From the NCBI GenBank assembly GCA_030123675.1, contig JASJYH010000004.1, positions 184 to 64,183 of the forward strand: a DNA stretch of 64,000 nt. Reading direction: 5' to 3'. Positions 22,345 through 50,066 of this stretch are shown one piece after another. The notes below the pieces were generated by a model, which saw only the letters and a program-made list of their open reading frames with translations, ran no database searches and was not told the origin of the DNA. Position numbers and translations under genes: made by a program. Within the stretch, counting starts at the first letter, position 1. Every line of letters begins with the position of its first letter. The DNA is from Anaerolineae bacterium. GTDB taxonomy: Bacteria > Chloroflexota > Anaerolineae > Anaerolineales > Villigracilaceae.

Positions 22345-23698
22345 AACCTTTTATTGGCATTAAGTATTCTTGTAGATCAGTCAGCGCTCGTTCAGCGTAA
22401 GCCTTTCCGCGTTCTCTTTTGCCTCGTTTCTTGCCAGTGTTTTCCAAAGCAGGCAATATCCCAAAATTTGCTTTCATTGGTTGAAAATCGGCCATATCTG
22501 CATGGGTGACATAATGTGCGAGGGCACCCAGCATTGTAGTTTTTGGAAGAGTTAGGAGAGGTTGACGATAAATTTGGCGAGCTGCATTTATTCCTGCCAA
22601 TAATCCTGTCGCAATATTGCCAATATATCCTTCTACTCCTGTAATTTGGCCTGCAAGGAACAAATCATCCCGTATATTGAATTGAAGCGTAGGACGCAAA
22701 AGTTTTGGACTAGCCAGGAAGGTGTTGCGATGCATCTGGCCATAACGTTCAAAATCTGCCGTTTCAAGACCTGGGATTAATCGAAATACACGCCGCTGGT
22801 CTGGAAATTTCAGATTTGTTTGAAAACCAACCAAATTGTATAAATCACCAGCGAGATTATCTTGTCGTAATTGCACGACTGCATGAGGGCGCTGCCCATC
22901 GCGGGGATCAATTAGCCCAACAGGGCGCATAGGACCAAATGCCAGAGAGGCAAGCCCGCGTTCAGCGATGATTTCAACAGGCAAACAGCCTTCAAAGAAA
23001 TGATGTGCGCCTGCTTTCACACCACTTCGAATGGTTTCTTCAAAGGATCGCAATTCAATTCGTTCCGCCTCGAGCAAGGCCTTTACAAAATTTTCGTATT
23101 CAACCTTGTTGTATGGACAGTTTATATAATCCCCTTCGACTTGATCACTCTTATCATTTCGTGATGCTCTGAACGCGATCTCATGATTTATCGTGTCGTA
23201 GTTAATGATTGGAGAGATTGCATCGAAGAAATATAAGTGATCTTCGCCGAATAATTTTTTAAGATATTCAGAAAGATTTTGTGATGTTAAAGGGCCTGTC
23301 GCTATTATCGTGGGCGAATCGGGAATAGTAGTTACTTCCTCCCTTATTACATTTATCAAGGGATGGGAATAAATTTTGTCTGAAACTTTTTGTGAAAATA
23401 ATTGCCTGTCTACCGCCAATGCTGCCCCAGCCGGTACGGCAGTTTCCTCTGCAGTTTCAAGTAGCATTGAGCCAAAATGACGTAACTCATTCTTTAACAA
23501 ACCTGCTGCGCGATCTGGTAAGTTAGAGCCTAATGAATTGGAGCAAATTAGTTCGGCTAGATCGCTTGTTTGATGTGCCCCTGTGGATTTGACTGGACGC
23601 ATTTCGTATAGTGAAACAGAAATTCCCAATTCCGCTGATTGCCATGCAGCTTCACTGCCGGCCAGCCCACCACCGATAATTGTCAGTTTATTTTCCAT
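22337..23698 (-). CDS. trmFO: Methylenetetrahydrofolate--tRNA-(uracil-5-)-methyltransferase TrmFO
   Basis: 453 aa. [16 protein letters not shown] motif and [10 protein letters not shown], with overall TrmFO/Gid-like sequence. Confidence 0.9.
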
Positions 23699-23761
23699 GA
23701 TTCCGAGCTATTGTACCATTCGTTTATTTGTACTTTACTGCTGTATAATAATGTAACAATT

Positions 23762-26392
23762 ATGGTTGATAAGAACGGAACAGGTTATCGGCTGAAGGAG
23801 GCCACCCAGATTGCGGGGTCATCTTGGGTTGTGCATTTAGATCGTCAAGTGGGGAAGTGGAAATTCGTAAATTCATACAAACTTACCAAACCACGAACTA
23901 CAAATTTGGTTGATTATCTGTCTCAATCTTCGGTTGATTCATGGTTATGTGGCGCGCTAGGTAGTCGCTCTAGCCGTTCGCGTGCGATAATCAAAGAAAT
24001 TAACATCGGATGTAGTCGCTTATTCGCATTCCCGATCGAGGGAAGTACTGGAGTTCTGCTTGTTGGTGGGGACGAACAGAATGGGATCGCACAACGAGTT
24101 TGGAAATTGGTAGCAAGTACATTATCCGAACCCGAGGCGGGGGATCCGGAAGTTTCACCGGTCGTGTCGGATACGCTGGTGTCTGCTATGCAGGAGGGGG
24201 TCCCCTATGATTTACCTGCTGCATTAGATCAGATGCTAGCATCGATTGCACTCCAAGTCCCGTGTCAGGGAGCTTGGTTGGCTGTTCGAAGGGGTGATGT
24301 TTTAGAGATTCAAACTCATTGGCGGACTCCACAGAGTAAAGGTACTGCTCTTAATATTGATAACTATGAAGTTCTACAGGAAATCAGCAAGACCCAAACT
24401 GGGCTGAGGATTGAACGTGATGCCGAGCACCAATGGGAAGAACTCCCTCAAATCGGGTTAAAGACAACTACAGGTGCTTGGGGATGCGTGCCACTAGTTG
24501 TCGGTCAAAGACTTATTGGTATGATCGCTTTGTGGCGATTACGATCCTTTAATGATCAAGAGTGGAAACAATTTGTTGATATGGTTGTACGGGCTGCCCC
24601 TTCTGTTGAAGTCATCATAACGTTCACCGAATTAAGCGGTCATTTACACCGTTTGGCAATGTTAAATGATTTCGTTTTGACACTATCATCCGGGAAAAAC
24701 ATAGATCAAATTGCACAACGGGTCTTCGCTCTGTTAGCGCGCGCATTTCGAACTGAGGTGTGTGGATTATATCTAATCTCTACTGATGAACGGACGATTC
24801 GAGAATATCGAAATGTCAATGGGAATGTAAATTTGAACATAACGGGATTAAGCAATCATCCCGTTATCAAATTATCCAATAGAGAACAAATCAGACAACT
24901 GAGTCGAAATGAAAAAACAGAAGTTTTATTTGCTTCTGAGAATTCTCAAGATTTGGTGCTGGTTCCCTTGCGCTATCGTGGACGAACAAATGGTTGGCTA
25001 GCACTTGAGATTTCATCGTCAGAAGGCTTTTCAGTTTACGACACACGTTTAATTACTGTAATTGCAGGCCACCTTGCAGGTTTATTGGAATATACCCGTT
25101 TGCGAGAGGAGGCAATTGGTAGGGCAAGGAATTTGGGGCTGATCCATGAAGTTGTCCAAGAAGTCATCGGTCTACTAGATAAACAAGAAGTAATCCAAAT
25201 CACTGCAGAATTATTGGTTCGTTATTTTGGTTATGAATTTGCTGTTATTTTATTGGTCGACGATGATAATAAACCGATACATTGCGGATCTGGAGGCTCG
25301 CAAGCCCCATCAACTGAAAATTTGATTTCTGAGTTTGCATATCTGGTTGATGAAAATAAAGGGGGTATAACACATCACGTTTTGGATACGGGTGAAAGCC
25401 TTTTGGTTAATGATGTAACCACTTCATCAATTTATATATCCATCGAAGGTTGGGATGCAGGTTCGGAGCTATGCGTTCCGCTGAAAGACGGTGGCCGCGT
25501 AGTGGGCTTGATGGATATTGAGAGTAGCTCGAAAAACGCATTCGACCAAAATGATATTATGGTGCTTGAATCACTTGCCGGTATTATATCCAGTGTGATT
25601 TCAAATGCGGATCAATATCAACATTCTCAGGAAAATGTACGGAAATTAAGACAAACGCAACAAGAACTTCAATCCAGAATTGAATCCCAATTAGAAGCTG
25701 AACGCAGGCTGATACAGGCCGAGAAATTGGCAGCAGTAGGTGAAATGGCGGCCGGTATTGCCCATGAATTAAATAACCCGCTAACTACGGTTAATGGATT
25801 CACAGAAATTGTCTTAGATGAAATACCTAAAGATTCTAAAAACCGCAGTGATTTAGAACTTGTTTTGCAAGAGGCCAGACGTGCACGTGATGTAGTCCGG
25901 CGCTTACTTGATTTTTCGCGACGGAGTGAAAGTGAACGGACAAAGGCAGATATTAACGAAATTTTAAATGATGTATTATCGTTGACAAATCATTTAATGC
26001 AATCTAGCGCTGTGGAATTGGATGTATCCCTGGAGGAGAATTTACCCTGGGTTTCCATTGATCGAAATCAAATGAAACAAGTTTTCCTAAATCTGATCCA
26101 CAATGCAATCCAGGCTATGCCTTCGGGTGGACAATTACTCATTAAATCCGCTACGCTGCTACATGAAGGTCGAAAATGGGTTACCGCCTCAGTTAGTGAT
26201 TCCGGAGAAGGTATTGTGCCGGAAGCCCAAGCGCGCATTTTTGAGCCGTTTTTTACGACCAAGTCGAATGAAGGTGGTACAGGCCTTGGCTTATCCATTA
26301 CCTTTGGAATTGTATCTGATCATGGGGGTGATATAGAAGTCTTTAGTAAAATAAGAAAAGGATCAAAGTTTATAGTCCGGCTTCCAATTTAA
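23762..26392 (+). CDS. Multi-GAF sensor histidine kinase
   Basis: I chose the ATG at 23762 (MVDKNGTGYR); the longer track ORF from 23639 would overlap trmFO. Several GAF-like modules are followed by H-box AAGIAHELNNPLT, N-box LIHNAIQAM and G-box GGTGLGLSI. Confidence 0.85.
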   Translation: MVDKNGTGYRLKEATQIAGSSWVVHLDRQVGKWKFVNSYKLTKPRTTNLVDYLSQSSVDSWLCGALGSRSSRSRAIIKEINIGCSRLFAFPIEGSTGVLLVGGDEQNGIAQRVWKLVASTLSEPEAGDPEVSPVVSDTLVSAMQEGVPYDLPAALDQMLASIALQVPCQGAWLAVRRGDVLEIQTHWRTPQSKGTALNIDNYEVLQEISKTQTGLRIERDAEHQWEELPQIGLKTTTGAWGCVPLVVGQRLIGMIALWRLRSFNDQEWKQFVDMVVRAAPSVEVIITFTELSGHLHRLAMLNDFVLTLSSGKNIDQIAQRVFALLARAFRTEVCGLYLISTDERTIREYRNVNGNVNLNITGLSNHPVIKLSNREQIRQLSRNEKTEVLFASENSQDLVLVPLRYRGRTNGWLALEISSSEGFSVYDTRLITVIAGHLAGLLEYTRLREEAIGRARNLGLIHEVVQEVIGLLDKQEVIQITAELLVRYFGYEFAVILLVDDDNKPIHCGSGGSQAPSTENLISEFAYLVDENKGGITHHVLDTGESLLVNDVTTSSIYISIEGWDAGSELCVPLKDGGRVVGLMDIESSSKNAFDQNDIMVLESLAGIISSVISNADQYQHSQENVRKLRQTQQELQSRIESQLEAERRLIQAEKLAAVGEMAAGIAHELNNPLTTVNGFTEIVLDEIPKDSKNRSDLELVLQEARRARDVVRRLLDFSRRSESERTKADINEILNDVLSLTNHLMQSSAVELDVSLEENLPWVSIDRNQMKQVFLNLIHNAIQAMPSGGQLLIKSATLLHEGRKWVTASVSDSGEGIVPEAQARIFEPFFTTKSNEGGTGLGLSITFGIVSDHGGDIEVFSKIRKGSKFIVRLPI

Positions 26393-26399
26393 ATCATTC

Positions 26400-27983
26400 A
26401 TGAATGAGCATATACTAATTCTTGATGATGAACCAGGCATAACTAAATTATGTACTAGGTTATTAATACGAGCCGGGTACAATGTTTCTGCATTCACGGA
26501 GTCATCCCCAGCTTATCAACATTTGCGGTCGAATGAAATTGATATGCTTTTGGTTGATATTCGAATGCCAGGTACCGATGGATTTGAAGTAATAAATCAC
26601 GCGAAAAAATTACAACCCGATATTGCGGTACTTGTTATGACAGGATATGGAACTGTGGAGACCGCTATTCATGCACTTCGACAAGGTGTAGATGGATTGT
26701 TACTCAAGCCATTTGAACATGGCGCTGAGTTGGTAGACACTGTCAAACAAGCGCTATTGGATAGTGAGCGCAAGCGTGATGCAGCCCGAATTAATACACT
26801 AAGACCGCTATTCAATGTGACCGAATCTTTGCTATCTGAAACGCGCAGAGATAAATTAATGATATTGATCCAAAAATCGATTCAGGCACATTTGCGCTGT
26901 AAAAATGTGGGCTATTATCAGGTTGGAGGAGATCAAACGGTAAAATTGTTATCTGGCATCGGTAACGTACCCGCAATTAGTTCCGAAAATTCAAAAAATG
27001 GATTTTTGGATAAAATTGTAAATCTAAAAAAACCAATAATTATTAATGCAAGTGGTCCTGGATCAAAAGATTTTGGGTCAGAGTTGCAAAAACTTAATTT
27101 AAATGCGGCAATGTTCACACTAGTGAAAGGAATTAATGGGGATAGCTTACTTTTCGCAGGAAGAGACGAAAACGAGAATCCGTTCAGGGAAGCAGACTTG
27201 GAAATGTTCCTCATTCTTTCAAATCAATCTGCCATTGCACTTGAGAATGCGCGCTTGTACGCGGAATTGCGAGATTATGTAAAACAGGTTGAAGATTCTC
27301 AACAAGCCTTACTTCGTGCCGAGAAAATGGCTACCTCTGGTCGGTTGTCTGTTTCGATCGCGCATGAAGTCAATAACCCGTTACAAGCTGTTCAGAATTG
27401 CTTACACCTTGCAGGCAGGGAAGATTTACCGGAGGAAAAAAGAAAAGAATATTTTGACCTTGCAAATACAGAGCTCGACCGACTTATGATTACGGTTCAA
27501 AGAATGTTAGATTTTTATCGTCCAGGGGCTGTTCCTGCCTCGAAGGTTAAATTGGATGCTATCCTTAAACATGTTCTGGATCTATTAGCGCAACAACTTG
27601 ATAAGCAAAAGATATCAGTCAGTGTGAATCTGGCAAAAAGGTTGCCTGAAGTTTTTGTGGTTGATAATCAAATTCAACAAGTATTTATTAATTTGATCTT
27701 GAACTCAACAGATGCTATGCCAGATGGGGGAGAGCTTGGAATAATTGCAAAACCGGTAAAAGATGGAATTGAAATCCTTATTCAAGATAACGGTCCTGGC
27801 ATTCCTGATGAAAGCCTCCCGCATATATTTGAACCTTTTTTTAGTACGAAGGAGGGCGGAACAGGACTTGGATTAACTGTCAGTTACAATATAATAACTG
27901 CGCATGCAGGTACTCTCGAAATAATTTCGGATAATGGCCCCGGGACTTGCTTCCGTTTATTTCTGCCGATTGGAGGAAAATAA
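26400..27983 (+). CDS. Hybrid REC-GAF-histidine kinase
   Basis: 527 aa. N-terminal receiver (ILDDEPG, LLVDIRMPGTDG, LLKPF), a central GAF-like region, H-box VSIAHEVNNPL and G-box GGTGLGLTV. Confidence 0.85.
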   Translation: MNEHILILDDEPGITKLCTRLLIRAGYNVSAFTESSPAYQHLRSNEIDMLLVDIRMPGTDGFEVINHAKKLQPDIAVLVMTGYGTVETAIHALRQGVDGLLLKPFEHGAELVDTVKQALLDSERKRDAARINTLRPLFNVTESLLSETRRDKLMILIQKSIQAHLRCKNVGYYQVGGDQTVKLLSGIGNVPAISSENSKNGFLDKIVNLKKPIIINASGPGSKDFGSELQKLNLNAAMFTLVKGINGDSLLFAGRDENENPFREADLEMFLILSNQSAIALENARLYAELRDYVKQVEDSQQALLRAEKMATSGRLSVSIAHEVNNPLQAVQNCLHLAGREDLPEEKRKEYFDLANTELDRLMITVQRMLDFYRPGAVPASKVKLDAILKHVLDLLAQQLDKQKISVSVNLAKRLPEVFVVDNQIQQVFINLILNSTDAMPDGGELGIIAKPVKDGIEILIQDNGPGIPDESLPHIFEPFFSTKEGGTGLGLTVSYNIITAHAGTLEIISDNGPGTCFRLFLPIGGK

Positions 27984-28738
27984 TGAAGACGAGCATACTA
28001 ATTGTCGATGATGAGCCTGTTGCCCGAAAATCTTTAACAGATATATTGCGCTTGGAAGGATACTCTGTTTCATCTGTTCCAAATGGACAAGCCGCGATAG
28101 AGCATATTCGTACTAACCAAATTGACTTAATGATTGTTGATTTACGTATGCCTGGAATGGATGGCCTCGAGGTAGTCCAAGTTGTAAATCAGCTTGCGCC
28201 AGATACCGAAATTGTCCTTTTGACAGCCTACGCTTCTACTGAAACTGCTATTCAAGCCTTACGTTTGCGAATCCACGATTATTTGCAAAAACCAGCTTCC
28301 CCGGCACAGGTATTGGCCAGTGTAAAAAGGGGCATTGAACGACGAGAAATAAGATTACAAGCAAAGGAAAATGGTGGGGATTCATCCGATGCAAGTAAAG
28401 CCTTTGACGCACTAAGCCTAGACGATGGAACAGAAATCGATTTGTCCCGCCGACAAATCAAATTAAACAATACAATAGTAAGCTTAACCCCAGCCGAAGG
28501 GAGATTATTACGTGTTCTATTAGCTAACGAGGGAAAGGTATTTGCGCACCGTGAATTGGTCTTGCTTGTTCAAGGTTATGATACTTCGCAACGAGAAGCA
28601 CCAGAAATTCTTAGACCTTTGGTAAGTCGTTTACGTCACAAATTAGAGGTCTTTCCAGCTCTTGCAGATCATATCGTTAGTATCCGAGGAACTGGGTATG
28701 TCTACGAGGGCATAAAAGATGATATTAGCAGTCGTTAG
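27983..28738 (+). CDS. Response regulator, REC + OmpR-type winged helix
   Basis: The ATG at 27983 overlaps the upstream TAA (TAATG) and follows GGAGG. MKTSILIVDDEP, MIVDLRMPGMDG; C-terminal LTPAEGRLLRVL...IRGTGYVY. Confidence 0.8.
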   Translation: MKTSILIVDDEPVARKSLTDILRLEGYSVSSVPNGQAAIEHIRTNQIDLMIVDLRMPGMDGLEVVQVVNQLAPDTEIVLLTAYASTETAIQALRLRIHDYLQKPASPAQVLASVKRGIERREIRLQAKENGGDSSDASKAFDALSLDDGTEIDLSRRQIKLNNTIVSLTPAEGRLLRVLLANEGKVFAHRELVLLVQGYDTSQREAPEILRPLVSRLRHKLEVFPALADHIVSIRGTGYVYEGIKDDISSR

Positions 28739-29700
28739 CGATTCTTGGATTCGGGTTGTGGTTGACGAAAAGTCAAGTCATTTGGTATACCGGGTGGAGT
28801 AAGCCAGCTTAACCAACTTCCACGCCCGATATTTTTCTGATTCTCTTTAAATTTATCAAAATATACTAAAAATATGCTGGCAAAGAGAATTCCAGCACCG
28901 ACCCATTGTATTGGGGTTAAACTTTCCTTAAGCCATACAATACTTAATCCAATAGCTACTAAAAGCTCTAGCAACCCAAGTAACGAAGTTTGCATACCAC
29001 CCAAATGTTTTACTCCGAGAAACAGGAATAAACGAGATAAAAAAGTGACCAAGGTTAATGCAATAACAGGCCACCAAAGACCTGGACCGGGAAGTGTTCG
29101 ATCAAATATTAAATATGCTGGAAATACAACTAAGCTCATTGCCAGAAGAGTATAAAGAGTTACCGTTGGAGCAGGGATATCATACAAGACCTTCTGATTG
29201 ATAGGGATATGAAGCGCATAAAGTACGGAAGCTAATAACATTTGAGCGACCCCGATAATGTCTATGCTACCGGTTGAAGTATAGGTTAATAATATTACAG
29301 CGACAGTCGCTAGAAATATACGCGCTATTGTAAATCGACTAGGGGGTTGCGAATCTAAAATTAGGACAATTGCAACAATTAAGGGATAAAGGGAGAAGAG
29401 CAGCTGCCCAACTGATGCAGTAACCCGGCCAAGTGCAGCATAATAAAATATAGAACCTACTCCATTTAATAAACCGGCGATTCCGCAACCTAGTAACCCC
29501 GCAGGATAAATATATAAATATTTCCGACGAAAAATAACCATTATTGCGAGTAATAAAATCGTAGCCAGAAATGTTCTTAACCCAACTACCGCTAATGGCG
29601 TGATGTTCAGGTTTATTGCCTGCTTACCAAAAACAGGCGCCAACCCTAAAAACACTGTAGACAGCAGCGCTGCTTGTAAACCTGTCTTGCGTTTCTGCAT
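28735..29700 (-). CDS. EamA/DMT-superfamily transporter (10 TM)
   Basis: 321 aa. Two EamA-like halves of 5 TM each. Sits 6 nt downstream of the ThrC-like-REC gene. Its stop overlaps the stop of the convergent response regulator gene. Confidence 0.8.
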   Translation of the reverse strand: MQKRKTGLQAALLSTVFLGLAPVFGKQAINLNITPLAVVGLRTFLATILLLAIMVIFRRKYLYIYPAGLLGCGIAGLLNGVGSIFYYAALGRVTASVGQLLFSLYPLIVAIVLILDSQPPSRFTIARIFLATVAVILLTYTSTGSIDIIGVAQMLLASVLYALHIPINQKVLYDIPAPTVTLYTLLAMSLVVFPAYLIFDRTLPGPGLWWPVIALTLVTFLSRLFLFLGVKHLGGMQTSLLGLLELLVAIGLSIVWLKESLTPIQWVGAGILFASIFLVYFDKFKENQKNIGRGSWLSWLTPPGIPNDLTFRQPQPESKNR

Positions 29701-29706
29701 TATTTA

Positions 29707-31377
29707 TTATTTTAAAAGCGCACGTACTTCCCCTAGAAATTCATCATTCAAGAACTCCCCTTTTTGCATTAGTGTTTGAATTTGGCCTTTTAGTCTATTT
29801 TTTTCATTGGGTGTTAGTTCCTTGGCTGATGCAACAATGACTGGAATATTTGCAGTGTCTTGATTACGTTTAAGAATTTCAATTACCTCGAAGCCGTCCA
29901 TCTCAGGCATCACAAGATCTAAAATGATCAGATCAGGTTTTTCTTTTTCGATCATAGCAAGTAATTCTTTACCATCCCCAGCTTCAAAAATTGTAAATTC
30001 TCCCTGAGATTGAAGGATTCGACGTATCAGGCGGCGTGATTCAAGACTATCATCAGCGATTGCAATTCGTGGAAATCGTTCCGGTGCAACCCGATTGAGT
30101 GCAGCGAGAAGGCCATCTTGTTGAGGAGTTTCCTCATAACTTGGCAATTCGATATCACGTGACCAATCATCACCAAGCAACCATTGCTCAGCTGGCATTG
30201 TGTGTCCGGTACAATTTATTACTACTGTATCGGTTGATTTGATGACGCCATTTCGAATTAATTTGAACAAGCCAGCGAATGCAACTCCTGCGGCTGGTTC
30301 GAATGAGAGACCCTCCATTTTTGCAATTATATGCATTGCTCGGAAGGCCTCTTCATCACTTACGCTTTCAAAGCAACCACCAGTTTTATCTATACTCTGT
30401 TTGAGTAATATGTAGGTTCGACCAGGGTCACCTGTTGCAAGTGTCTCAATGTGGGTTTGTGGGTGCATTACCGTCAAAGGTTCGTCTAATCCCTTCTTCC
30501 AACTTTCAACCATTGGTGCACACCCATCTGTTTGGATAATCGCAATTGAAGGCAGTTTATCTACCACCCCCATTTCCTTTAATTCCCTGAACCCCTTTGT
30601 GACCCCCAAGGGTCCCATACCACCACTAACTGCTTGAACGTACCAATCAGGACTTCGCCATTTTAAGGATTTGTGAATATTATCCGTTTTGGGGCTCAAC
30701 ATTCTTGTGAGCTGTTCAGCAATCTCAAATGAGATAGTTTTCATTGCTTCGACAGATGATATTGTCCTAGTACCCATGTCTAGGGTAAGATTTCTTTGTC
30801 GGGCAAATTCAGAAGCCATTTTCTTGGTTTGGTCATATGTTCCAGTTACTTTAACGACTTGACTGCCATATAATGCAATCTCATGCATTTTGACTGCGGG
30901 GACGAGACTAGTTAGAAATGCCCAAAGTTTAATTCCCGCTCGGGCAGCATAAGCTGAATAGGATATAGCCACATTCCCCGTAGAAGCCGCGACCAGCTCA
31001 GTGATACCAGCTTCTTTCAATGCCGAAATAGTAACCGCCGCTTGGCGATCTTTAAATGATGATGTCGGTCCTTGGCGCTCGTCCTTAATGAAAATGTTTG
31101 GGCACCCTACCATCATGCCAAGATTTTCAGCCTTAATTAAGGGTGTCCCACCTTCGCCCAAACTAATTAATGGATCTGGATTTTTAATGGGTAACAATTC
31201 GTGATAACGCCAAAGGTCGAATTGCCGATTTTTTAATTGCTTCCCCCATATCTCTGCCACATTACTTAAATCATATTCGGCAATCATCCATTCACTTTTG
31301 CAATTTTCGCAATTTGTGGATGTTGGGTGATAAGCAGAAATACCATTACAATCGAGGCATCTTATTTTAAATGACAT
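29707..31377 (-). CDS. Threonine-synthase-like fold-type II PLP enzyme fused to a C-terminal response-regulator receiver domain
   Basis: 556 aa. N-terminal zinc ribbon (CLDCNG...CENCKS), LGEGGTPL, PLP-lysine motif TSSFKDRQ and ASTGN. The C-terminal ~120 aa form a receiver (IAIADDS, LIILDLVMPEMDG, VIVASAK). Confidence 0.8.
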   Translation of the reverse strand: MSFKIRCLDCNGISAYHPTSTNCENCKSEWMIAEYDLSNVAEIWGKQLKNRQFDLWRYHELLPIKNPDPLISLGEGGTPLIKAENLGMMVGCPNIFIKDERQGPTSSFKDRQAAVTISALKEAGITELVAASTGNVAISYSAYAARAGIKLWAFLTSLVPAVKMHEIALYGSQVVKVTGTYDQTKKMASEFARQRNLTLDMGTRTISSVEAMKTISFEIAEQLTRMLSPKTDNIHKSLKWRSPDWYVQAVSGGMGPLGVTKGFRELKEMGVVDKLPSIAIIQTDGCAPMVESWKKGLDEPLTVMHPQTHIETLATGDPGRTYILLKQSIDKTGGCFESVSDEEAFRAMHIIAKMEGLSFEPAAGVAFAGLFKLIRNGVIKSTDTVVINCTGHTMPAEQWLLGDDWSRDIELPSYEETPQQDGLLAALNRVAPERFPRIAIADDSLESRRLIRRILQSQGEFTIFEAGDGKELLAMIEKEKPDLIILDLVMPEMDGFEVIEILKRNQDTANIPVIVASAKELTPNEKNRLKGQIQTLMQKGEFLNDEFLGEVRALLK

Positions 31378-31389
31378 ACCAGAGATGTA

Positions 31390-34300
31390 TTAATTGGGAT
31401 CGACGCTTACGCGATTTAGGGCATTTTCTATACTATTTATTAAATCTTTCTCTTTAAGTGAACTTTTTTGAAGCAATCGATTGCCTAAATTGTCTACCTG
31501 TTTTTGTTCCTCTGCGGAGAGGTCTGCTCCGGTGATAATTATAACCGGCAAGTCTTTTAATTTTTCATCTTTTCGTAAGTTTTCAAGTATATTAAAACCA
31601 TTCATCTCTGGCATAAAGAGGTCCAATATAACCGCATGGGGTGGGTTGGAGGATAAAGAATTCCAACCAGCAGGCCCACCCTCAGCTAAGATCGGTTTAT
31701 ATTTCCCTTGCTCGGAGAGCATTTTCCCTAACAAACGCAAGTCATTTGGGTTATCGTCAATTATTAGGACTTCTCGAATACTTCCATCACCGTTTAAGCG
31801 GTCAAGAGAACTTACCAGGTCATCTTCAAGGACAGGTTTTACTAAATAGTCGGTTGCACCCAGGTTATATCCTTTATCTTCATCTTCTACAATGCTGCAA
31901 ATTATGACAGGGATGTCTCGAGTTTCGGCCGAAGATTTAAGGTTTGACAAGATTTGCCATCCATCGTAATCTGGCATCATAATATCCAATGTTATCGCAA
32001 AAGGATTTAGGTCTTTCACTTGTTCCGTTACTTTAGAAGGGTCTTTCAAACCAATAACCTTATATCCTTTTGGTTCTAGATACCGTTTATACATGCTGAT
32101 AACTTTAGGGTCATCATCAATCGCAAGAATTAATCGCCCATCTTCAGGTCTAGTGGATTCAATTTTGGTTTGAGAAATAGGTATCGAGAAATAAAATGTA
32201 CTGCCCTTTCCTAATGAGCTATGGACACCGATTTGACCCCCGTGCATTTCGATTAAGTGGTTACAAATTGAAAGCCCAAGACCTGTACCTCCTGCTTTTC
32301 TAGTAAACGAATCGTCTACTTGGGAGAAAGGCTTAAAAAGTTTATCATGATCTTTTTTTGCAATACCTTCCCCGGTATCCGAAACGCTTACCAACACTAA
32401 GGGTTCTTTGCCGGCACCTTCTTCAATTGTAACTTTAACGGTGATTTCACCTTCTTCTGTAAACTTAGCTGCATTTGAAAGGAAGTTGATCAAAACTTGA
32501 CGTATCCGCATTGCGTCCGCGCGAACGATAAGGGGTTTTTCTGGGATGTCCCGTTTAAGCTCTATTGGTTTATCCTTTATCAAACCAGCTGCAGTGGACA
32601 TCACACTGATAATCAATTCGTTGATATTTACATCTTCGAAAGTAAGTTCCATTTTCCCCGCATCAATTCGCGAGAGATCAAGAATATCATTGATGAGACC
32701 TAATAAATGTTGACCAGAGTTGAAAATTGCTGTCAGATCTTGCTGTTGTAATTCGGTAATAGGTCCATCGATTCCCTTGAGAATTACACGTGCAAAACCA
32801 ATGATCGAATTCAATGGAGTGCGCAATTCATGACTCATATTAGCCAGAAATTGACTTTTCAAGCGGTCTACCTCGCGCATTTCCTCTACCGCTTGTTGCG
32901 CGATATTATAGGATCTCGCATTATCGATTCCAACCGCAATTTGGTCTGCTAAAAGTTGTAAAATGGCAATATTATCATCGGTGAAGGCGTTAATTTCTGT
33001 CGAGTGAATATCAATGGTGCCGATAACGCGTTTACCACTTTTTAGCGGGATGGCTGCTTCAGATCGAGTTTCCGATAAAAGGGGGGAAGGATTAACAATA
33101 GATTCAAGGGCTGTATTGTTGTTAATTACTGTTTCGCCACTGGCACTTGATTTACCAACCAAGGATTTTGAATCAATAGCGATTGAATGTTTTTGTTGTT
33201 TTAATTTTTCGCCTACTTCACCAGTAGATTCTTTCAAAACTGCATTAAATCCAGACTCATCAATGATGAAAATTGAGGTGTGATAAAACCCAAATCGCTC
33301 TACAATAAGATTTACTGATCGGTCGTAGATTACGTTCAAATCCAATGTAGAGGTAACTAAGGTTCCGATCTCCCCAGAAGCTGCTAAATATTCATTCCTT
33401 CTATTGAGAGCTTCCTCAGCCTCTTTTCGGACGGTAATATCACTGTGAATGGCCAAAAACCCGAGAATGTTATCGTTTGCATCTAAGATAGGGCTATTTG
33501 TCCCATCTATTGGAATTAGTTTGCCATCTTTTCTTTTATTGATTATTTCCCAGGAAACCGTCTCCTTATTCAGCAGGGTATCCCAAAATATTTTAAATTC
33601 CTCTTTTGGAACCTGCCCTGATTTAATAATCCGTGGATTTTTCCCAAGCACCTCTTCTACGGAATAACCATACACTGTTTTAAAACTAGGATTTGCATAA
33701 ACAATATTTCCTTGAATATCGGTCATGAACACTGCGTCTGCAGAGCGTTCCAATCCCAATCGAAATTTACGACTTTCATCAAATAATTGTGCGTTTTCAA
33801 TTGTAAAACCTAATTGGTTTGCAATAGCTTGTGCTAATGATAATTCTTCTTTTGTTAAGCCAACGGTGGAGTTTCGATAAAGACTAAGGGTCCCAAGTGT
33901 TTTCCCCTTTACAATTAAAGGAACACCATAGAAGCCATAGAGACCAGCTTTAATTTCAGATTTCACATCACAAGGGGCGCCCTTTCGCAAATCATTTATG
34001 GCTAAACTTTCACCGGTGTTGTACACAATTCCACTTAGAGATTTTTCAAGCATCTTCTCTAAATCGTCAGTACCCTTACCTGGCATTCCAATCCGTTCAG
34101 CAAGCTCTAATTTCGCTCTAGCTTCATTAAAAATAGAAATTAATCCGCCTTCAAATTTAAGAACTTCGAGGACTTTCTTTAATACGATGGAAAGAATTTC
34201 TTTAATGTCTATTGATTGGTTTGCAGCAGCCAAAACGGCATTTAAGGCGGCTTGTTCTTCAGCACTCCTTTGGGTTTCTTGAAACAAGCGTGCATTTTCT

Positions 34301-34659
34301 AGCGCTTGAGAAAGTTGATCAGCTACTTGTTTGATGAGTAATTGTTCTTCTGTCCCCCATTTACGTTCCTCTAATTCATCAATTACTTTCAGCGTTGCCC
34401 AGCTATTTTCATCTGTGCGAAATGCAGTCGAGAGCATTGCCGAAGATGATTTGCGATTCCCAGCTGGGATCGTTGAAGTTTCTTTAAGGATTGAAAGATC
34501 CCTTGTGCCAAAATTGGTCGGCTGTTCTTTAACTGTGAGTTTAGAACTTTGAGGCGGTTTGGTTCCATTCTTTTTTGACCGCTTTGATTTCGCTTCAGGT
34601 TCTTTATCGAAATCGCCAAATAACTTATCAAGCCTGTTGTTTAATTTCTTCTTTGACAT
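31390..34659 (-). CDS. Hybrid sensor histidine kinase: GAF-PAS-GAF-HisKA-HATPase_c-REC-REC
   Basis: 1089 aa. PAS (DAVFMTDIQGNIVYANPSFKTVYGYS), H-box ANMSHELRTPLN, G-box GGTGLGLSIC, and two receivers (LAIDDDP...LDIMMPDYDG; LIIDDNP...LDLFMPEMNG). AGGAG sits 10 nt before the ATG. The start overlaps the 3' end of parA by 32 nt. Confidence 0.85.
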   Translation of the reverse strand: MSKKKLNNRLDKLFGDFDKEPEAKSKRSKKNGTKPPQSSKLTVKEQPTNFGTRDLSILKETSTIPAGNRKSSSAMLSTAFRTDENSWATLKVIDELEERKWGTEEQLLIKQVADQLSQALENARLFQETQRSAEEQAALNAVLAAANQSIDIKEILSIVLKKVLEVLKFEGGLISIFNEARAKLELAERIGMPGKGTDDLEKMLEKSLSGIVYNTGESLAINDLRKGAPCDVKSEIKAGLYGFYGVPLIVKGKTLGTLSLYRNSTVGLTKEELSLAQAIANQLGFTIENAQLFDESRKFRLGLERSADAVFMTDIQGNIVYANPSFKTVYGYSVEEVLGKNPRIIKSGQVPKEEFKIFWDTLLNKETVSWEIINKRKDGKLIPIDGTNSPILDANDNILGFLAIHSDITVRKEAEEALNRRNEYLAASGEIGTLVTSTLDLNVIYDRSVNLIVERFGFYHTSIFIIDESGFNAVLKESTGEVGEKLKQQKHSIAIDSKSLVGKSSASGETVINNNTALESIVNPSPLLSETRSEAAIPLKSGKRVIGTIDIHSTEINAFTDDNIAILQLLADQIAVGIDNARSYNIAQQAVEEMREVDRLKSQFLANMSHELRTPLNSIIGFARVILKGIDGPITELQQQDLTAIFNSGQHLLGLINDILDLSRIDAGKMELTFEDVNINELIISVMSTAAGLIKDKPIELKRDIPEKPLIVRADAMRIRQVLINFLSNAAKFTEEGEITVKVTIEEGAGKEPLVLVSVSDTGEGIAKKDHDKLFKPFSQVDDSFTRKAGGTGLGLSICNHLIEMHGGQIGVHSSLGKGSTFYFSIPISQTKIESTRPEDGRLILAIDDDPKVISMYKRYLEPKGYKVIGLKDPSKVTEQVKDLNPFAITLDIMMPDYDGWQILSNLKSSAETRDIPVIICSIVEDEDKGYNLGATDYLVKPVLEDDLVSSLDRLNGDGSIREVLIIDDNPNDLRLLGKMLSEQGKYKPILAEGGPAGWNSLSSNPPHAVILDLFMPEMNGFNILENLRKDEKLKDLPVIIITGADLSAEEQKQVDNLGNRLLQKSSLKEKDLINSIENALNRVSVDPN

Positions 34660-35413
34660 ATTCTATTAACTCCTGAGCCAGTAAGCGATATTGTTGAGAG
34701 CCGCGGGTACTCGATTTATATTGTGTAATTGGCATTCCTGCGATTGGGCTTTCACGCAGCTTGGTGTCGATTTCTATGACCGTATTAAAAAGGCCTTTGC
34801 CAAAGGTGGATTTCAATTGTTCTTCAATATTGCGATGTGTACGGTTTCGCCGATCTAACATTGTTATAAGTATTCGATATGCTAGATCTGGATTGGTATC
34901 ATCTCTCAAGCGCTTTATTAACCCCATCATATTTCGGAGGGCATAGGCAGAGAAAAATTCAGCTTGCGTAGGAATAATTAATAGGTCGGCTGCTCCTAAC
35001 GCATTTTGAGTTATTGCACCAAGAAAGGGAGGGCAATCGAAAATCAAATAGTCATATGGTAATGGTGCTGCATTTTCAATTGCCTCACGCAAAATTCGGG
35101 TATAGTTTGTGCGAATTGGGAGGTATTGTTCGGCACTCTCGATGTTAGGATGCGCAGGAATAATATCAATTTCTTCGATATCTGTTGATTGCTTAGCGCT
35201 CATTAATGATGCTGCTTCTATAAGGATATTACTTGAAGAAATAGACACCTCATTTATTTCTAACCCTGCGGCCAGGGTTAAGTTTGCTTGTGGGTCTAAA
35301 TCTATCAGTAAAATTTTATTTCCTGCCTCTGCTAAGCCTGCGCCTAGTGACATGGTCGTTGTTGTCTTGGCTACGCCTCCCTTTTCATTTGAAACTGCAA
35401 TTGTATAGGTCAT
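34628..35413 (-). CDS. Orphan ParA/MinD-family ATPase (deviant Walker A)
   Basis: 261 aa. AVSNEKGGVAKTTT deviant Walker A and LLIDLDPQANLT. No ParB-like gene is adjacent. Its ATG overlaps the upstream TAA by 1 nt (TAATG). Confidence 0.85.
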   Translation of the reverse strand: MTYTIAVSNEKGGVAKTTTTMSLGAGLAEAGNKILLIDLDPQANLTLAAGLEINEVSISSSNILIEAASLMSAKQSTDIEEIDIIPAHPNIESAEQYLPIRTNYTRILREAIENAAPLPYDYLIFDCPPFLGAITQNALGAADLLIIPTQAEFFSAYALRNMMGLIKRLRDDTNPDLAYRILITMLDRRNRTHRNIEEQLKSTFGKGLFNTVIEIDTKLRESPIAGMPITQYKSSTRGSQQYRLLAQELIEYVKEEIKQQA

Positions 35414-37734
35414 TACTTCTCTCCTACGCTTTTTATGGTTTGGGGAGCATTGTTATTATCTGGATTGGGTGTCCTATCTTTAGACATAGGCGGACTTTCT
35501 GGCCCTTGAAGGACATGGGGTATCAATTGAACATGGGTTGCACCCAATGCAATTTTTAATTCTTCAATGGCAGTTTGGATAATTTTATCGGGATCATTTG
35601 TGCTGCGAATTTTACCGGAGATGTCTGATACTAAGCGTTCACGTTCAGCACGTCTTGTTATTTCTTCAAATAGGCGTGCGTTTTCTGCCGAAAGAGCTAC
35701 ACGTTCTGCAACCGCATTTACCAACTCCATTTGGTCTTCCCCGAGATCGTAATTTTCAGGAACTTGAACAGTCAATGTTCCAATTGGTTCACCACGAATT
35801 TTAATAGGGACTGATACACGTTTCGTCTCATTATTGCTATCGCTTTGGCCTCCATCTGACAATATTGCATCTATATTGTCAGATGATTCCAATGGAGTGG
35901 CACCGCGAGCATCGTAACGATAGCCTGCAAGGTCTTGTTCCCTTGATAGCTTGCTCCATGCCTGGCGAATGTACTGTCTATATAATGTTTCAGATTCTGC
36001 TAGGGATCTGCGTGTTTGATCAAAAAGACGTGCGTTTTCGATTGCTAAGCTTACTTGATCTGCCAATAGAGTTAGCACATTGATATCCTCATCATTAAAT
36101 GCAGCTTCTACTGTACTTTGAACATCCAATGCACCGATAATTTGGTCTCCAAATTTTAATGGAAGGGCCATTTCTGATCGCGTATCCGGCAATTCTGGAT
36201 TGTCGAAGAACACGGCATCCTCACCAACGTCTAGGGCTATGCGGGGTCTTCCAAGCGCGATGGAATATCCTACTATACCTTGCTCACCGATTTTGAGTTG
36301 ATGCCCACGTTCCAACATTTTTTTACCACCCTCACTATTGGCCGCACTTAGAACTGCATACTCATCAGTAGAATTGTTAAGGAAAATACCTACCTGGTAA
36401 TAACCAAATTGTTGGCTGATCACTTCAGTAATTTTGGGCAATACGTTCTCAATGGAGCGGACAGAAGTAATTGCGCTACCAACCAGGGTAATTGCTTTGA
36501 GCTGATTTGCACGTTGTTCAATCTGCTCATTTGCTTTTTCTAATTCAATAGTACGTTCTGATACCCTGTCTTCCAAACCGCTAAATAGCTCTTGTATTTG
36601 ATCAGCCATAGTATTGAAAGAATTTGCGAGGCTGACCAACTCAATACCACCAGTGATTTGCACTGATTGGTTTAAATCACCTTGCCCTAGCTTTTGAGCT
36701 GTATCTCTGAGCTGGTTCAACGGCCCAATGATGCGCCGCGTTAACACGAATGCGGCCAATGATCCTACTCCTAGGGCCACCAAAGATATTATTATCAAAG
36801 CCAATCTACCATTTCCACTGACAGATTGCAGTTGGAAACCTACCCGATTAAGAGCTTCAGTGCTTTCTTGGCGGATGTGGTTTGTGGTTTTGTTAATCTT
36901 TAGTAATTCTTCTCTTAAAATAATTGTGTTGGCTTCAATATTTGCGTCTAGCACTGCCAAGCCTGTTAGATTGTTTCGAATTACCTTGATAGATTCGACC
37001 AAATTTGAGGCAGGTATTGGTATTGTATTTGCCATCAAATCATCCTCCGAACTGTTTTGTACCAGTTCACCAAAATCTATGGTTAATAATTGAAGGTTGT
37101 CATAATATTGGCTCTGGCCTGTGTTTAAGAATGATTGTGAATCAGCCTGAATTTTCAAAACAAGTTGATATAGCTCAGGATTATCAAGAGGGAGAACAGA
37201 GTGTTCAAGTTCGTTAAGCGTTGTTTTTAATGTGATCTCTGGACCATCAGGAGCACTGCGCTTTTCAATATCAGTAACAATAGCTTGAAAGGCAGTTTCA
37301 TAGGCGTCTACCGAAAGACCCAGGCCTGCGGTTTCAGATAGAATATGTTCTATTTCTGGATTGTCGGATCTTTGAATAAAATCGTCTAATTCCCTTAGCG
37401 AACTGCGGGCTAACCCAAGGTGCGATTCAAAAGGAATGAGATAATCTGTTTGAACTCTCTCGAATCCAAGAGTGCGCCATGCAGACAGGAAATTTGTTTG
37501 ATCATGGCGGGCCAGCATGAACTCAGGTTCGATTTCGTGATTCAAGACACTAATATTTTTGGCTTCTTCCAGAGGAATACTTACATTGGTGCTCAAGGTC
37601 TGCAAGCTAAAATAACCGACCCCTGCAATAATTAGGGCCAAACCAAGAATGACCCCGAACATCAATCCGAGTTGGGATCTAATTGAGCCAGTTACACGGT
37701 TAGGATTTGATGAAGTTCTTGAAGATAATGTCAT
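35413..37734 (-). CDS. Receptor-like paralog 1: TM, ~265-aa extracytoplasmic helical domain, TM, HAMP, S-helix, GAF, conserved C-terminal module. No recognisable output domain.
   Basis: 773 aa. HAMP (IIGPLNQLRDTAQKLGQGDL...), S-helix LEDRVSERTIEL, GAF core FGYYQVGIFL...FDNPELPDTRSEMALPL...IGALDVQS...LADQVSLAIENARLF, and tail ...AERVALSAENARLFEE..RRAERE..ISGKIRS....IIQTAIEEL. Confidence 0.85.
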   Translation of the reverse strand: MTLSSRTSSNPNRVTGSIRSQLGLMFGVILGLALIIAGVGYFSLQTLSTNVSIPLEEAKNISVLNHEIEPEFMLARHDQTNFLSAWRTLGFERVQTDYLIPFESHLGLARSSLRELDDFIQRSDNPEIEHILSETAGLGLSVDAYETAFQAIVTDIEKRSAPDGPEITLKTTLNELEHSVLPLDNPELYQLVLKIQADSQSFLNTGQSQYYDNLQLLTIDFGELVQNSSEDDLMANTIPIPASNLVESIKVIRNNLTGLAVLDANIEANTIILREELLKINKTTNHIRQESTEALNRVGFQLQSVSGNGRLALIIISLVALGVGSLAAFVLTRRIIGPLNQLRDTAQKLGQGDLNQSVQITGGIELVSLANSFNTMADQIQELFSGLEDRVSERTIELEKANEQIEQRANQLKAITLVGSAITSVRSIENVLPKITEVISQQFGYYQVGIFLNNSTDEYAVLSAANSEGGKKMLERGHQLKIGEQGIVGYSIALGRPRIALDVGEDAVFFDNPELPDTRSEMALPLKFGDQIIGALDVQSTVEAAFNDEDINVLTLLADQVSLAIENARLFDQTRRSLAESETLYRQYIRQAWSKLSREQDLAGYRYDARGATPLESSDNIDAILSDGGQSDSNNETKRVSVPIKIRGEPIGTLTVQVPENYDLGEDQMELVNAVAERVALSAENARLFEEITRRAERERLVSDISGKIRSTNDPDKIIQTAIEELKIALGATHVQLIPHVLQGPESPPMSKDRTPNPDNNNAPQTIKSVGEK

Positions 37735-37812
37735 AGTTTTTGCTTCCCGATACCTATTTAGAGGTATCTAGAGATTTCATTGCATAATAGAAACGCAATA
37801 TATTGAATCTTA

Positions 37813-40620: not shown

Positions 40621-40663
40621 ATTTTCTCCAAATTAAAAGTCCACTTTTCATTTTTTTCGAATG

Positions 40664-42367: not shown

Positions 42368-42469
42368 ACATAGCCTCGTAAAGGAATATTAGTTCGATTT
42401 TGAGTATTGTTCTTTACTCTAAAAACTTCCATCAATATTATTTTTAGACTTCTAAATCAGATACAAAGA

Positions 42470-43855
42470 TTATTTATTGTTCCTGTTATCCGGTTCTAGC
42501 GAAGGCGCCTCAGTTATGTTTGCCATTTCGATGGTGACGCCGCTGGCTCCAGAAAGGCGACGGCCAAGTTCTTCTACAGTCGTTTGCAAGATTGACTCGA
42601 CATCCCTGGCTGCATTAATGCTGGCTGAGATTTCTCCAATAACCTGTTCTTTGGAAACAGAGTTTCGTGCATCTTCGATCAAGCGGGCAATCTCCAGCGC
42701 CAAGCCAGTTCGGTCAGCAACTGCTTTTGCCATCAATAATTCATTATTAGACCATTCACGATTTGGATCTAATGCGTTTAGGTGAATGCGGCCGATAGTA
42801 TTTCCGCGAATTTTAATTGGGATCGAGAGTTGGTCACTAGACACTAATTTCTTGTGTTGTTTTTCCGTATATGGTTTGGGTGTGAGACCATCATAAATGT
42901 AGCCCTTAACCTTAACTCCAGGTAGATAGCTTTTCCAAATTAGGCCGGATTCACGTTTGCTGGTAGCCTCTTTCAATTTCAGAGCCAATTCTGCCTCTTC
43001 CACAAAGCGAGTACTTTGAATTGATATGGCAACTTGGTCGGCGAGAATTGAGAGCACATCGACATCATCTTGTGTAAAGGCATTTCGTTCTTTTGATTGT
43101 AAGTCCAATGCGCCAATGATTTCGCCCGCTATTTTTAATGGAAGAGCCATTTCGGAATGGGTTTCGGGTAAGTCAGGATTGTCAAAAATAACGGAACCAA
43201 CCCCAACGTCTAGGGCGATGCGGTGTTTTCCGATAAATGTCACGTTTCCTACGATACCTTGTCTGCCAATTTTTATCCGGTGTCCATTATTGATCATCTT
43301 TTTTCCGCCCTCACTACTAGCTGCTCTTAATATGGCAAACTCACGATTTTCGTCTACCAAGAAAATGCCTATATGGTAATACTCGAATCTCTGACTTATC
43401 AATAAAGCGATTGAATCAAGTAATTGTTTCAAATCTTTTACTGTAGCCCCTGAACGGGCTACATCTGCAACAATTCGGAGTTGATTTACTTTCTCACTAA
43501 TTTTCTCGTTAGCGGCTCCCAGTTCAGAAGTGCGTTCTAAGACTCGCTGCTCTAATTCTTCACCCGATGCTTGAAGTTCATCGTTTGCTAATTCAATAAT
43601 TTCGTTCGCCTCATATAGGCGGTCTTCACGAATTCCGACAAAAAAGGCCAACAGACCAAGAAAAATGGGTGCTGTGTCAATGATATTAATTAATTGGTTC
43701 GTTTGATGTAGCACAATTACATTTAGTAATGTAAGTTGTAATCCACTTTGTGATAATTCTATTACTGTTCCAATTAGTGGAAATAAAAAGCCGAACCCAA
43801 CCCCTATTAGGGTAAATTTATTTCGTTTATCGTTGCTAATTGATTTTTTTGTCAT
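42470..43855 (-). CDS. Receptor-like paralog 4: short TM N-terminus, coiled coil/S-helix, GAF, C-terminal module (no HAMP seen)
   Basis: 461 aa. LEQRVLERTSEL; GAF core FEYYHIGIFLVD...FDNPDLPETHSEMALPL...IGALDLQS; tail VADRTGLALEIARLIED...EISASINAARDVESILQTTVEELG. Confidence 0.85.
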   Translation of the reverse strand: MTKKSISNDKRNKFTLIGVGFGFLFPLIGTVIELSQSGLQLTLLNVIVLHQTNQLINIIDTAPIFLGLLAFFVGIREDRLYEANEIIELANDELQASGEELEQRVLERTSELGAANEKISEKVNQLRIVADVARSGATVKDLKQLLDSIALLISQRFEYYHIGIFLVDENREFAILRAASSEGGKKMINNGHRIKIGRQGIVGNVTFIGKHRIALDVGVGSVIFDNPDLPETHSEMALPLKIAGEIIGALDLQSKERNAFTQDDVDVLSILADQVAISIQSTRFVEEAELALKLKEATSKRESGLIWKSYLPGVKVKGYIYDGLTPKPYTEKQHKKLVSSDQLSIPIKIRGNTIGRIHLNALDPNREWSNNELLMAKAVADRTGLALEIARLIEDARNSVSKEQVIGEISASINAARDVESILQTTVEELGRRLSGASGVTIEMANITEAPSLEPDNRNNK

Positions 43856-43940
43856 TCTATTTTTCCATGCAGATTTATTATGATTTTAGCCAATCGGTCA
43901 GAAGATTTGATATTTTTGATCGTGCATATCCATATTCTTA

Positions 43941-50037: not shown

Positions 50038-50066
50038 TTTATTCCCTGTATTTTAAGCATCCACAA

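Follow-up and report, generated by a model that had tools for sequence, protein, structure and literature searches.

A PLP-dependent enzyme joined to a receiver domain

We analyzed a stretch of 64,000 nucleotides from an Anaerolineae bacterium (GenBank assembly GCA_030123675.1, contig JASJYH010000004.1, positions 184 to 64,183 of the forward strand). We will call this whole stretch the window, and unless a different locus is named, positions are in its numbering. On the minus strand of the window, a single gene encodes a zinc ribbon, a catalytic domain that resembles threonine synthase (ThrC) and should depend on pyridoxal phosphate (PLP), and a receiver domain (Table 1). The original prediction, which was made from these letters alone, described one open reading frame (ORF) of 556 amino acids with these three parts. 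The ORF list and Pfam bear this out: the ORF is unbroken, it begins with ATG, and it encodes 556 amino acids before its stop codon. The gene lies between genes for a hybrid histidine kinase and for a permease of the drug/metabolite transporter (DMT) superfamily.

The assignments of the two large domains are clear. Pfam places PALP at residues 71–391 (E = 2.6e-62, 211 bits, far over the gathering score) and Response_reg at residues 438–539 (E = 1.2e-19, 71 bits, against a gathering cutoff of 30.2). All of the motifs that had been named for the protein are in place: SSFKDRQ (residues 106–112), which includes the Schiff-base lysine K109 (nucleotides 31051–31053); ASTGN (131–135); IADD (440–443); and ILDLVMPEMDG (485–495), which includes the phospho-acceptor D487 (nucleotides 29917–29919). 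When the receiver is aligned with CheY and Spo0F, the equivalents of D12, D13, D57, T87, and K109 of CheY are D442, D443, D487, S517, and K539. One detail of the original prediction needs to be corrected: it took the conserved lysine of the receiver to be K519, in ASAK, while K109 of CheY aligns with K539, in LMQKG. (K519 is likewise invariant across the fusion family.)

An AlphaFold2 (AF2) model, built from an alignment that included archaeal ThrCs, is confident for the PLP domain, with a predicted local distance difference test (pLDDT) of about 85–95. In the linker, pLDDT is about 30–40, and for residues 517–556 it is below 50; the model has no confident interdomain geometry. With disorder predicted for the linker, which is about 45 residues long, the model provides no interface between the receiver and the enzyme. 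(An earlier AF2 run on 35 sequences, at 70% identity or above, gave a mean pLDDT of 63 and was discarded.)

Table 1. Features of the fusion gene and its surroundings, in window numbering.
Feature	Position	Strand	Basis
Fusion gene: zinc ribbon, ThrC-like PLP domain, linker, receiver	29707–31377	-	ORF list, Pfam PALP + Response_reg
N-terminal Cys4 zinc ribbon, residues 1–35; C7, C10, C23, C26	31273–31377	-	Conserved cysteines
Fold-type-II PLP catalytic domain, residues 71–391	30205–31167	-	Pfam, PDB matches, AF2/Foldseek, column analysis
Linker of ~45 residues, 392–436; conserved W405, P418, G422-L-L-x-A-L427	30070–30204	-	pLDDT, family alignment
C-terminal receiver, residues 437–556; D442, D443, D487, S517, K539	29710–30069	-	Pfam, CheY/Spo0F alignment
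Hybrid histidine kinase, GAF-PAS-GAF-HisKA-HATPase-REC-REC, presumed cognate	31390–34659	-	Pfam
DMT/EamA-family permease	28735–29700	-	Pfam EamA x2, ~10 hydrophobic segments
ParA/MinD-like ATPase, directly upstream of the kinase	34628–35413	-	Pfam AAA_31/CbiA
Eight consecutive paralogous sensor-like genes	35413–52172	-	
Convergent two-component set	23639–28738	+	
GAF histidine kinase of the convergent set	23639–26392	+	
REC histidine kinase of the convergent set	26400–27983	+	
OmpR-type regulator of the convergent set	27947–28738	+	
Region without a long ORF	53005–55277		Longest ORF 88 amino acids
tRNA gene	55003–55074	-	

The fusion is conserved across the Anaerolineae

A search of 5.8 billion proteins found over 120 clusters that are 69–100% identical to the window's protein, all of which have PALP and Response_reg over their full length. 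These clusters are from ENA, JGI, NCBI, and Logan assemblies, and the members with names are from metagenome-assembled genomes of Anaerolineae or Anaerolineales. Examples of complete metagenome-assembled genomes with the fusion are GCA_040219275.1, GCA_054665355.1, DAOTXM01, DIDQ01, and JASEHI01. A sister branch, of about 710 amino acids, has two receivers (PLP-REC-REC, where REC is the receiver domain; P0123 and P0124). This branch has at least 120 clusters, with names from Anaerolineae, Aggregatilineales, and Chloroflexota. Further fused representatives at the level of 50% identity are P0121 (62% identity), P0126, P0127, and P0122, whose receiver is degenerate. A taxonomic census of the combination of PALP and Response_reg had been suggested, and it locates the fusion across Anaerolineae (Anaerolineales and Aggregatilineales). 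The family spans at least two orders of this class and hundreds of sequence clusters.

We considered that the fusion might be an artefact of assembly or sequencing, in which a missed stop codon or a frameshift had merged two separate genes. This idea is rejected because independent assemblies carry the same fusion, in both its PLP-REC and its PLP-REC-REC forms. The same single ORF is found in over 240 clusters, and the linker has conserved residues. With over 120 clusters in one branch and at least 120 in the other, the fusion is a real gene, as originally expected, and an artefact is hardly credible.

We counted the conservation of individual residues over 236 cluster representatives (115 PLP-REC and 121 PLP-REC-REC). 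In the PLP domain, K109, S132, G134, and N135 are invariant. In the receiver, D443, D487, and K539 are present in 236 of 236, as are S or T at position 517 and D or E at position 442. The four zinc cysteines are found in every representative that covers them (3 rows for PLP-REC-REC are gapped at C7 and C10); in the alignment, this Cys4 ribbon is shared with archaeal ThrCs. Since the PLP, zinc, and receiver residues are all conserved, both halves of the fusion are under purifying selection.

The catalytic domain resembles threonine synthase but has a different signature

The closest sequences in the PDB are class I ThrCs: 2zsj from Aquifex (1e-43), 2d1f from M. tuberculosis, and 1uim from Thermus, with E values of 1e-43 to 1e-37. 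Given the AF2 model, Foldseek also ranks ThrC structures first, with target-normalized TM-scores to bacterial ThrCs of 0.81–0.89. The next neighbors are the cysteate synthase CapA2, followed by serine/threonine dehydratases and racemases. K109 aligns with K61 of the Thermus enzyme, and S132–N135 align with its S84–N87. The original prediction had asked for a comparison of active sites, in case the catalytic residues were missing. They are not: the Schiff-base lysine and the S-T-G-N loop are retained.

Despite this fold, the protein misses the cutoffs of all of the NCBIfam models for ThrC. It scores 256.3 against PRK08197 (cutoff 303), 154.3 against TIGR00260 (cutoff 167.1), and 187 against PRK05638 (cutoff 421); the remaining ThrC models are further below their cutoffs. 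As a result, NCBI names members of the family only as "pyridoxal-phosphate dependent enzyme." (The JGI label of "threonine synthase" is automatic.)

The signature residues differ as well. Using the numbering of the Thermus enzyme (for which K61, N154, S155, R160, and N188 agree with the printed alignment), five solved ThrCs, from bacteria and a plant, share T88, N154, S155, R160, and both N188 and N191 in the loop G-N-x-G-N. This loop is G-N-A-G-N in the bacterial ThrCs, and the Arabidopsis enzyme has G-N-L-G-N. The signature residues are also found in most representatives of the canonical type, among them the archaeal-type P0195. In the window's protein, the residues at T88, N154, S155, R160, and N188 are V136, M201, G202, S208, and a glycine, and the loop is S-G-G-M-G. 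The fusion family instead has an invariant signature of its own across the 236 representatives: G202, R/K204, E210, M212-K-T214, S251-G-G-x-G255, and L313-A-T315. (The window's version is STGN-V136, G202, R204, E210-A-M212-K-T214, S251-G-G-M-G255, and T312-L-A-T315.) Furthermore, in a neighbor-joining tree of 130 sequences (rough, distance-based, and with no support values), the fusions lie in a clade with S-G-G-x-G, apart from the clade that holds the archaeal ThrCs and all five from the PDB. So, although the PLP domain has the fold of ThrC, its score, its signature, and its clade all point away from a threonine synthase. The original wording of "ThrC-like," rather than canonical ThrC, was apt: the protein is under the cutoffs, the signature is replaced, and it is outside the canonical clade.

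Of the relatives without a receiver, the closest is P0125 (53% identity), which has the same pocket signature. P0131 (46% identity) is encoded between a 619-amino-acid uncharacterized protein and a radical-SAM/SPASM enzyme, with a TauE-family (sulfite-exporter-like) permease next (locus L090, 218–4989); this locus may be a small biosynthetic cluster. P0135, another unfused member of the clade, is encoded beside an epimerase and a methyltransferase. Neither P0131 nor P0135 is beside genes of the threonine pathway. For several other unfused relatives, the neighborhoods were uninformative (short contigs).

We also looked for a canonical threonine pathway. Neither the window nor the flanks that we fetched showed a thrC, thrB, or hom among the scanned ORFs. 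Running tblastn with the ThrC of Aquifex over the fetched loci added nothing to the ThrC-like genes that were already known, and a search with P0195, which is the closest representative with the canonical signature, found archaeal ThrCs only (Methanococci and Bathyarchaeia). Cysteate synthase (TIGR03844) was considered as an alternative annotation and rejected, given a score of 101.6 against a cutoff of 324.9 and just 19% identity to CapA2 (9k3c).

More broadly, the matches to PRK08197 (P0139–P0270) form a large radiation with many residue variants at the signature positions of ThrC. Examples are A-S-T-K-R/G-G-G-T-G, with S-F-K-A-R, and L-N-I-L-Y/G-S-G-A-L. Judging from these residues, many of the members that are annotated as "threonine synthase" are probably not threonine synthases. 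One branch of the radiation (P0178, P0188, P0241, P0256, and P0270) has about 33% identity to the window's protein and is about 610–620 amino acids long. The three of these that we scanned (P0178, P0188, and P0256) have a C-terminal LeuA allosteric/dimerization domain (PF08502). ThrC-like plus LeuA is a second regulatory fusion within the zinc-ribbon radiation, and apparently an undescribed one.

A histidine kinase is the invariant neighbor

Besides the window, we read 10 loci that bear the fusion (two of which, L091 and L092, are identical, so that L092 was not counted separately). A census of GTDB with back-translated MPEMDGFE was useful for loci L001–L004; the other 76 of its 80 loci had either receivers that are not related or a PLP gene on its own. 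L004 is frameshifted and was not counted, and L083 begins at the fusion gene, with its upstream side not visible. The independent loci with a visible upstream side are nine: the window, L001, L002, L003, L082, L084, L087, L091, and L093.

In all nine of these, a GAF histidine kinase is encoded immediately upstream of the fusion. The adjacency of the kinase, which had been noticed in the window, thus holds wherever the upstream side could be read. In the window itself, the kinase gene ends 12 nucleotides ahead of the fusion, and the start of the EamA gene is 6 nucleotides past the fusion's stop codon; both of these distances had been given correctly. The tight spacing suggests that the genes are co-transcribed. 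The kinases of L002 and L084 lack receivers of their own, so at these two loci the fused receiver is the first receiver to be encoded after the kinase.

The other neighbors differ between branches. In type A loci (the window; L001, 78% identity; L003, 68%; and L087, 62%), the order is a ParA/MinD-like ATPase, a GAF histidine kinase, PLP-REC, EamA, and then a convergent OmpR-type regulator. L002 (68% identity) has a REC gene, a GAFx5-PAS-HisKA-HATPase kinase, PLP-REC, and EamA. In type B loci (L082, L091, and L093), a giant multi-GAF/PAS kinase of 1546 to over 3000 amino acids is followed by PLP-REC-REC, by one or two genes for single-domain RECs, and by a GNAT acetyltransferase of 287–290 amino acids. 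L083, which encodes a protein with a single receiver (P0127), likewise continues with REC, REC, and GNAT genes, and at L084 (P0126), the GAF kinase without a receiver precedes the fusion and one REC gene follows it. The GNAT genes are at 10557–11429 of L082, 2542–3411 of L083, 11128–11991 of L091, and 10999–11868 of L093. The GNAT proteins of L082 and L083 are 48.6% identical, and in L091 and L093, the next gene belongs to the alpha-amylase family. The window has no homolog of the type B GNAT.

An EamA permease is encoded directly downstream of the fusion in 5 loci only (the window, L001, L002, L003, and L087), or down to 62% identity. The pairing of enzyme and permease that the original prediction emphasized therefore needs to be narrowed: it holds within the PLP-REC sub-branch, but the sister branch has REC, REC, and GNAT genes instead. 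The GAF kinase is the invariant partner of the fusion, with the permease confined to the sub-branch of the window and the acetyltransferase to the sister branch.

The permease has two EamA repeats (E = 3.4e-30 in Pfam) and about 10 hydrophobic segments. It had been compared to RhtA and EamA, but we did not detect a specific relationship to RhtA, EamA, or YddG using TIGR00950 or the PDB. Against TIGR00950, which would have linked it to a characterized amino-acid exporter, it scores 46.7 bits (cutoff 230), and in the PDB it has no significant match, with only SLC35B1 at E of about 0.9.

The ParA/MinD-like ATPase scores under all of the NCBIfam cutoffs. Its gene is kept upstream of the kinase gene, and overlapping it, at L001 (6197–6982, 81% identity), L003 (5890–6681), and L087 (13–795). 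A ParA/MinD-like ATPase next to a kinase recalls the ParA-type positioning of signaling arrays.

Upstream of the ATPase in the window are eight consecutive paralogous sensor-like genes without a recognized output domain. Their domain contents are GAFx3; HAMP-GAF; MASE11-GAF; dCache-HAMP-GAF; GAF; HAMP-GAF; dCache-HAMP-GAF; and HAMP-GAFx2. All eight share a C-terminal module of about 150 amino acids that matches residues ~97–180 of the hybrid kinase, and these proteins may feed the hybrid kinase by heteromerization. On the other side, the convergent two-component set lies tail-to-tail with the EamA gene, with an overlap of 4 nucleotides. Its position is kept in L001 and L003, and L087 keeps at least the OmpR-type regulator. 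The convergent set could provide this circuit with a transcriptional arm.

Two REC genes (52179–53004) head the minus-strand cluster, and about 2 kb upstream of these genes lack a long ORF (Table 1). This region includes a tRNA gene; the only Rfam matches in the window are two tRNAs. Scans for promoters and terminators around the genes gave nothing above chance. In L004 (Ca. Villigracilis vicinus, JADKIL010000018.1, 6694–12666), the genes for the kinase, the fusion, and the EamA permease are broken into short ORFs; these breaks look like homopolymer or indel errors of a long-read assembly and not like pseudogenes. Finally, at 14749–17749 of L093, or 4.6–7.6 kb downstream of PLP-REC-REC, there is a threonyl-tRNA-synthetase-like gene, with the domains tRNA_SAD, tRNA-synt_2b, and HGTP_anticodon, and also a gene of the RidA family (Ribonuc_L-PSP). 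Neither gene is seen in L091, and their presence may be a coincidence.

The proposed role of the fusion and the alternatives

We propose that the fusion protein is an enzyme-output response regulator, that is, a specialized ThrC-like enzyme that is controlled by a kinase. Judging from the sequences, we put the probability of this at about one half. Starting from the domains, their conservation, and the adjacent kinase, we infer a phosphotransfer, control of catalysis, a type of reaction, and a transport step. The upstream GAF/PAS histidine kinase would phosphorylate D487 of the fused receiver, and the phosphorylated receiver would switch the activity of the N-terminal ThrC-like domain. The switch might be the relief of an inhibitory contact, as in CheB, or dimerization of the receiver that acts on a dimeric PLP enzyme, as in PleD or WspR. 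The catalytic domain would be a ThrC paralog that keeps the core chemistry (the Schiff-base lysine, the S-T-G-N loop, and a Thr or Ser at the pyridine nitrogen) within a rebuilt substrate pocket. Given the kept core and the rebuilt pocket, the most likely reaction would be a beta- or gamma-elimination or replacement on an amino acid that is not O-phosphohomoserine or that is bound unlike it. In the window's sub-branch, the co-transcribed EamA permease would probably carry the product out or the substrate in. Either an EamA permease or a GNAT as a neighbor fits with small-molecule metabolism.

We also considered that the output of the pathway might itself be a small molecule. In this scenario, phosphorylation of the receiver would turn on the synthesis of a non-proteinogenic (or over-produced) amino acid, which would serve as a signal between cells or as a cross-feeding metabolite. 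In the window's sub-branch, the DMT permease would export the product, and in the sister branch, the GNAT would N-acetylate it. We view this as doubtful. If it were true, it would be a kinase-gated "autoinducer synthase" in filamentous Anaerolineae.

Several points weigh against our proposal of a kinase-controlled, specialized enzyme. The linkage to EamA is not family-wide, as the PLP-REC-REC branch is without the permease. The receiver is at the C terminus and the linker that precedes it is predicted to be disordered. The loci encode many extra receivers, so the fused receiver could be a phosphate sink and not a switch. The argument from the pocket is also open to question. T88, N154, S155, R160, and N188 are presumably the ligands for the phosphate of O-phosphohomoserine, a role that is reportedly described in the 2003 work of Omi and colleagues and that is backed here by the pattern of conservation; this phosphate reportedly also steers the reaction to threonine. 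However, the alignment of the loop has a one-residue indel, so R204 could partly compensate, and G-T-R-T-I-S-S with R/K204 may hold a phosphate. Also, P0125 barely passes the cutoffs for ThrC and is encoded among housekeeping genes of a diderm.

The fusion might instead be a housekeeping threonine synthase with an added receiver, and threonine synthesis (perhaps with efflux of threonine or homoserine via an RhtA-like permease) would then be under two-component control. All of the best matches by sequence and by structure are threonine synthases, the model scores are only modestly under the cutoffs, P0125 passes those cutoffs with the same pocket signature, and the loop G-T-R-T-I-S-S, rich in Thr, Ser, and Arg, could bind a phosphate. 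The spread over Anaerolineales and Aggregatilineales is what might be seen for a core function. It is also well known that plant ThrC is allosterically regulated and that RhtA of E. coli is a DMT exporter. However, all five of the signature positions of the solved ThrCs are replaced, and the protein falls outside the canonical clade and under every curated cutoff. NCBI's pipeline does not call members of the family threonine synthase either. And at the loci that we read, the fusion is never beside hom or thrB and is always in a signaling operon. We consider a housekeeping role to be unlikely; if it were correct, this would be the first threonine synthase known to us that is controlled by aspartate phosphorylation.

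Alternatively, the protein might be mainly a signaling component, in which the PLP domain is a ligand sensor, of the MocR/GabR type, that gates a receiver acting as a phosphate sink or relay. This would account for the C-terminal position of the receiver, which is unlike most response regulators, and for the abundance of receivers: the sister branch has two fused receivers, followed by two more genes for single-domain receivers, and in the window, the kinase contains two receivers of its own, with another two REC genes at the head of the cluster. Also, there is neither an HPt domain nor a DNA-binding output among the Pfam hits of the minus-strand cluster. But the catalytic apparatus and the pocket are invariant in the 236 representatives, which is more than a sensor needs, and the conserved permease and acetyltransferase neighbors suggest a small-molecule product, so a sensor seems quite unlikely. 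A catabolic or detoxifying role, in which EamA imports a compound that resembles an amino acid and the PLP domain, once activated by the kinase, eliminates or deaminates it, in the manner of a dehydratase, seems very unlikely to us; the compound would in that case be a nutrient or a toxin and not a signal that is secreted. It is true that the structural neighbors after ThrC and CapA2 include serine/threonine dehydratases and racemases, that DMT permeases can work in either direction, and that ThrC enzymes have a side activity as deaminases (PMC12172450). But the sister branch does without a permease, and no downstream catabolic route is indicated at the loci that we read. Furthermore, the best-known DMT proteins for amino acids are exporters.

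Implications

Two-component systems nearly always end in transcription, in the turnover of second messengers, or in the control of motility. Here, a receiver is wired to a PLP enzyme that would transform amino acids, in hundreds of lineages of Anaerolineae, which are abundant but poorly studied bacteria of sludge, sediments, and groundwater. If our proposal is correct, then environmental sensing would alter metabolite chemistry within seconds and without gene expression.

The original prediction stated that no receiver-controlled ThrC-like enzyme was known to have been characterized. This agrees with our search of full-text literature (which most subscription journals are outside of): we found no report of a ThrC-like enzyme, or of another fold-type-II PLP enzyme, that is fused to a receiver. 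In the Anaerolineae, the fusions make up a family of enzyme-output response regulators that is uncharacterized and widely conserved; they are not a new principle. The novelty is in the class of enzyme, because fusions of receivers to metabolic enzymes are recognized in an earlier census (PMC5847659). The fusions also draw attention to a large radiation that is mis-annotated as "threonine synthases" and has substrate pockets unlike that of ThrC. Because their kinase, their phosphorylation site, and their permease or acetyltransferase partners are known, the fused members provide a handle on the function of one branch of this radiation.

Comparison with known systems

Class I and archaeal ThrCs (2zsj, 2d1f, 1uim/1v7c, 6cgq/6nmx) share with the fusion a common fold and the motifs S-F-K-D-R, S-T-G-N, and T-G-H, and archaeal ThrCs also share the N-terminal Cys4 ribbon. 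The fusion differs in being only 28–33% identical, in a separate clade, with a receiver at its C terminus and a setting in a signaling operon. Cysteate synthase (CapA2, 9k3c; TIGR03844) is another PLP enzyme that was derived from ThrC and has a changed substrate (Foldseek TM-score of 0.75), a precedent for ThrC paralogs that take on a new function, but it is about 19% identical to the fusion and has no receiver. As for the permease, its pair of EamA repeats and its roughly 10 hydrophobic segments put it in the same superfamily as RhtA, EamA, and YddG of E. coli.

Another combination of a CheY-like domain with a PLP enzyme is the "wing" or RRD domain of large fold-type-I amino-acid decarboxylases, such as Rv2531c (PMC12329521). 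That domain is N-terminal and is on a different PLP fold, while the receiver of the fusion has all of the phospho-acceptor residues and an adjacent kinase. As far as we know, the wing/RRD domain has been tied neither to a kinase nor to phosphorylation of an aspartate.

In its architecture, the fusion is more like the methylesterase CheB, the diguanylate cyclases PleD and WspR, and PorX, in which a receiver is joined to a catalytic domain and the kinase gene is adjacent. The differences are that the output of the fusion is a PLP-dependent amino-acid enzyme instead of a signaling enzyme and that its receiver is C-terminal. Receivers that are attached to "standard metabolic enzymes" have already been noted in censuses, usually with a narrow distribution, such as a family or a genus; in the accessible text of Galperin's census, a ThrC-like partner is not mentioned (PMC5847659). 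The principle is the same, but the fusion in Anaerolineae spans at least two orders.

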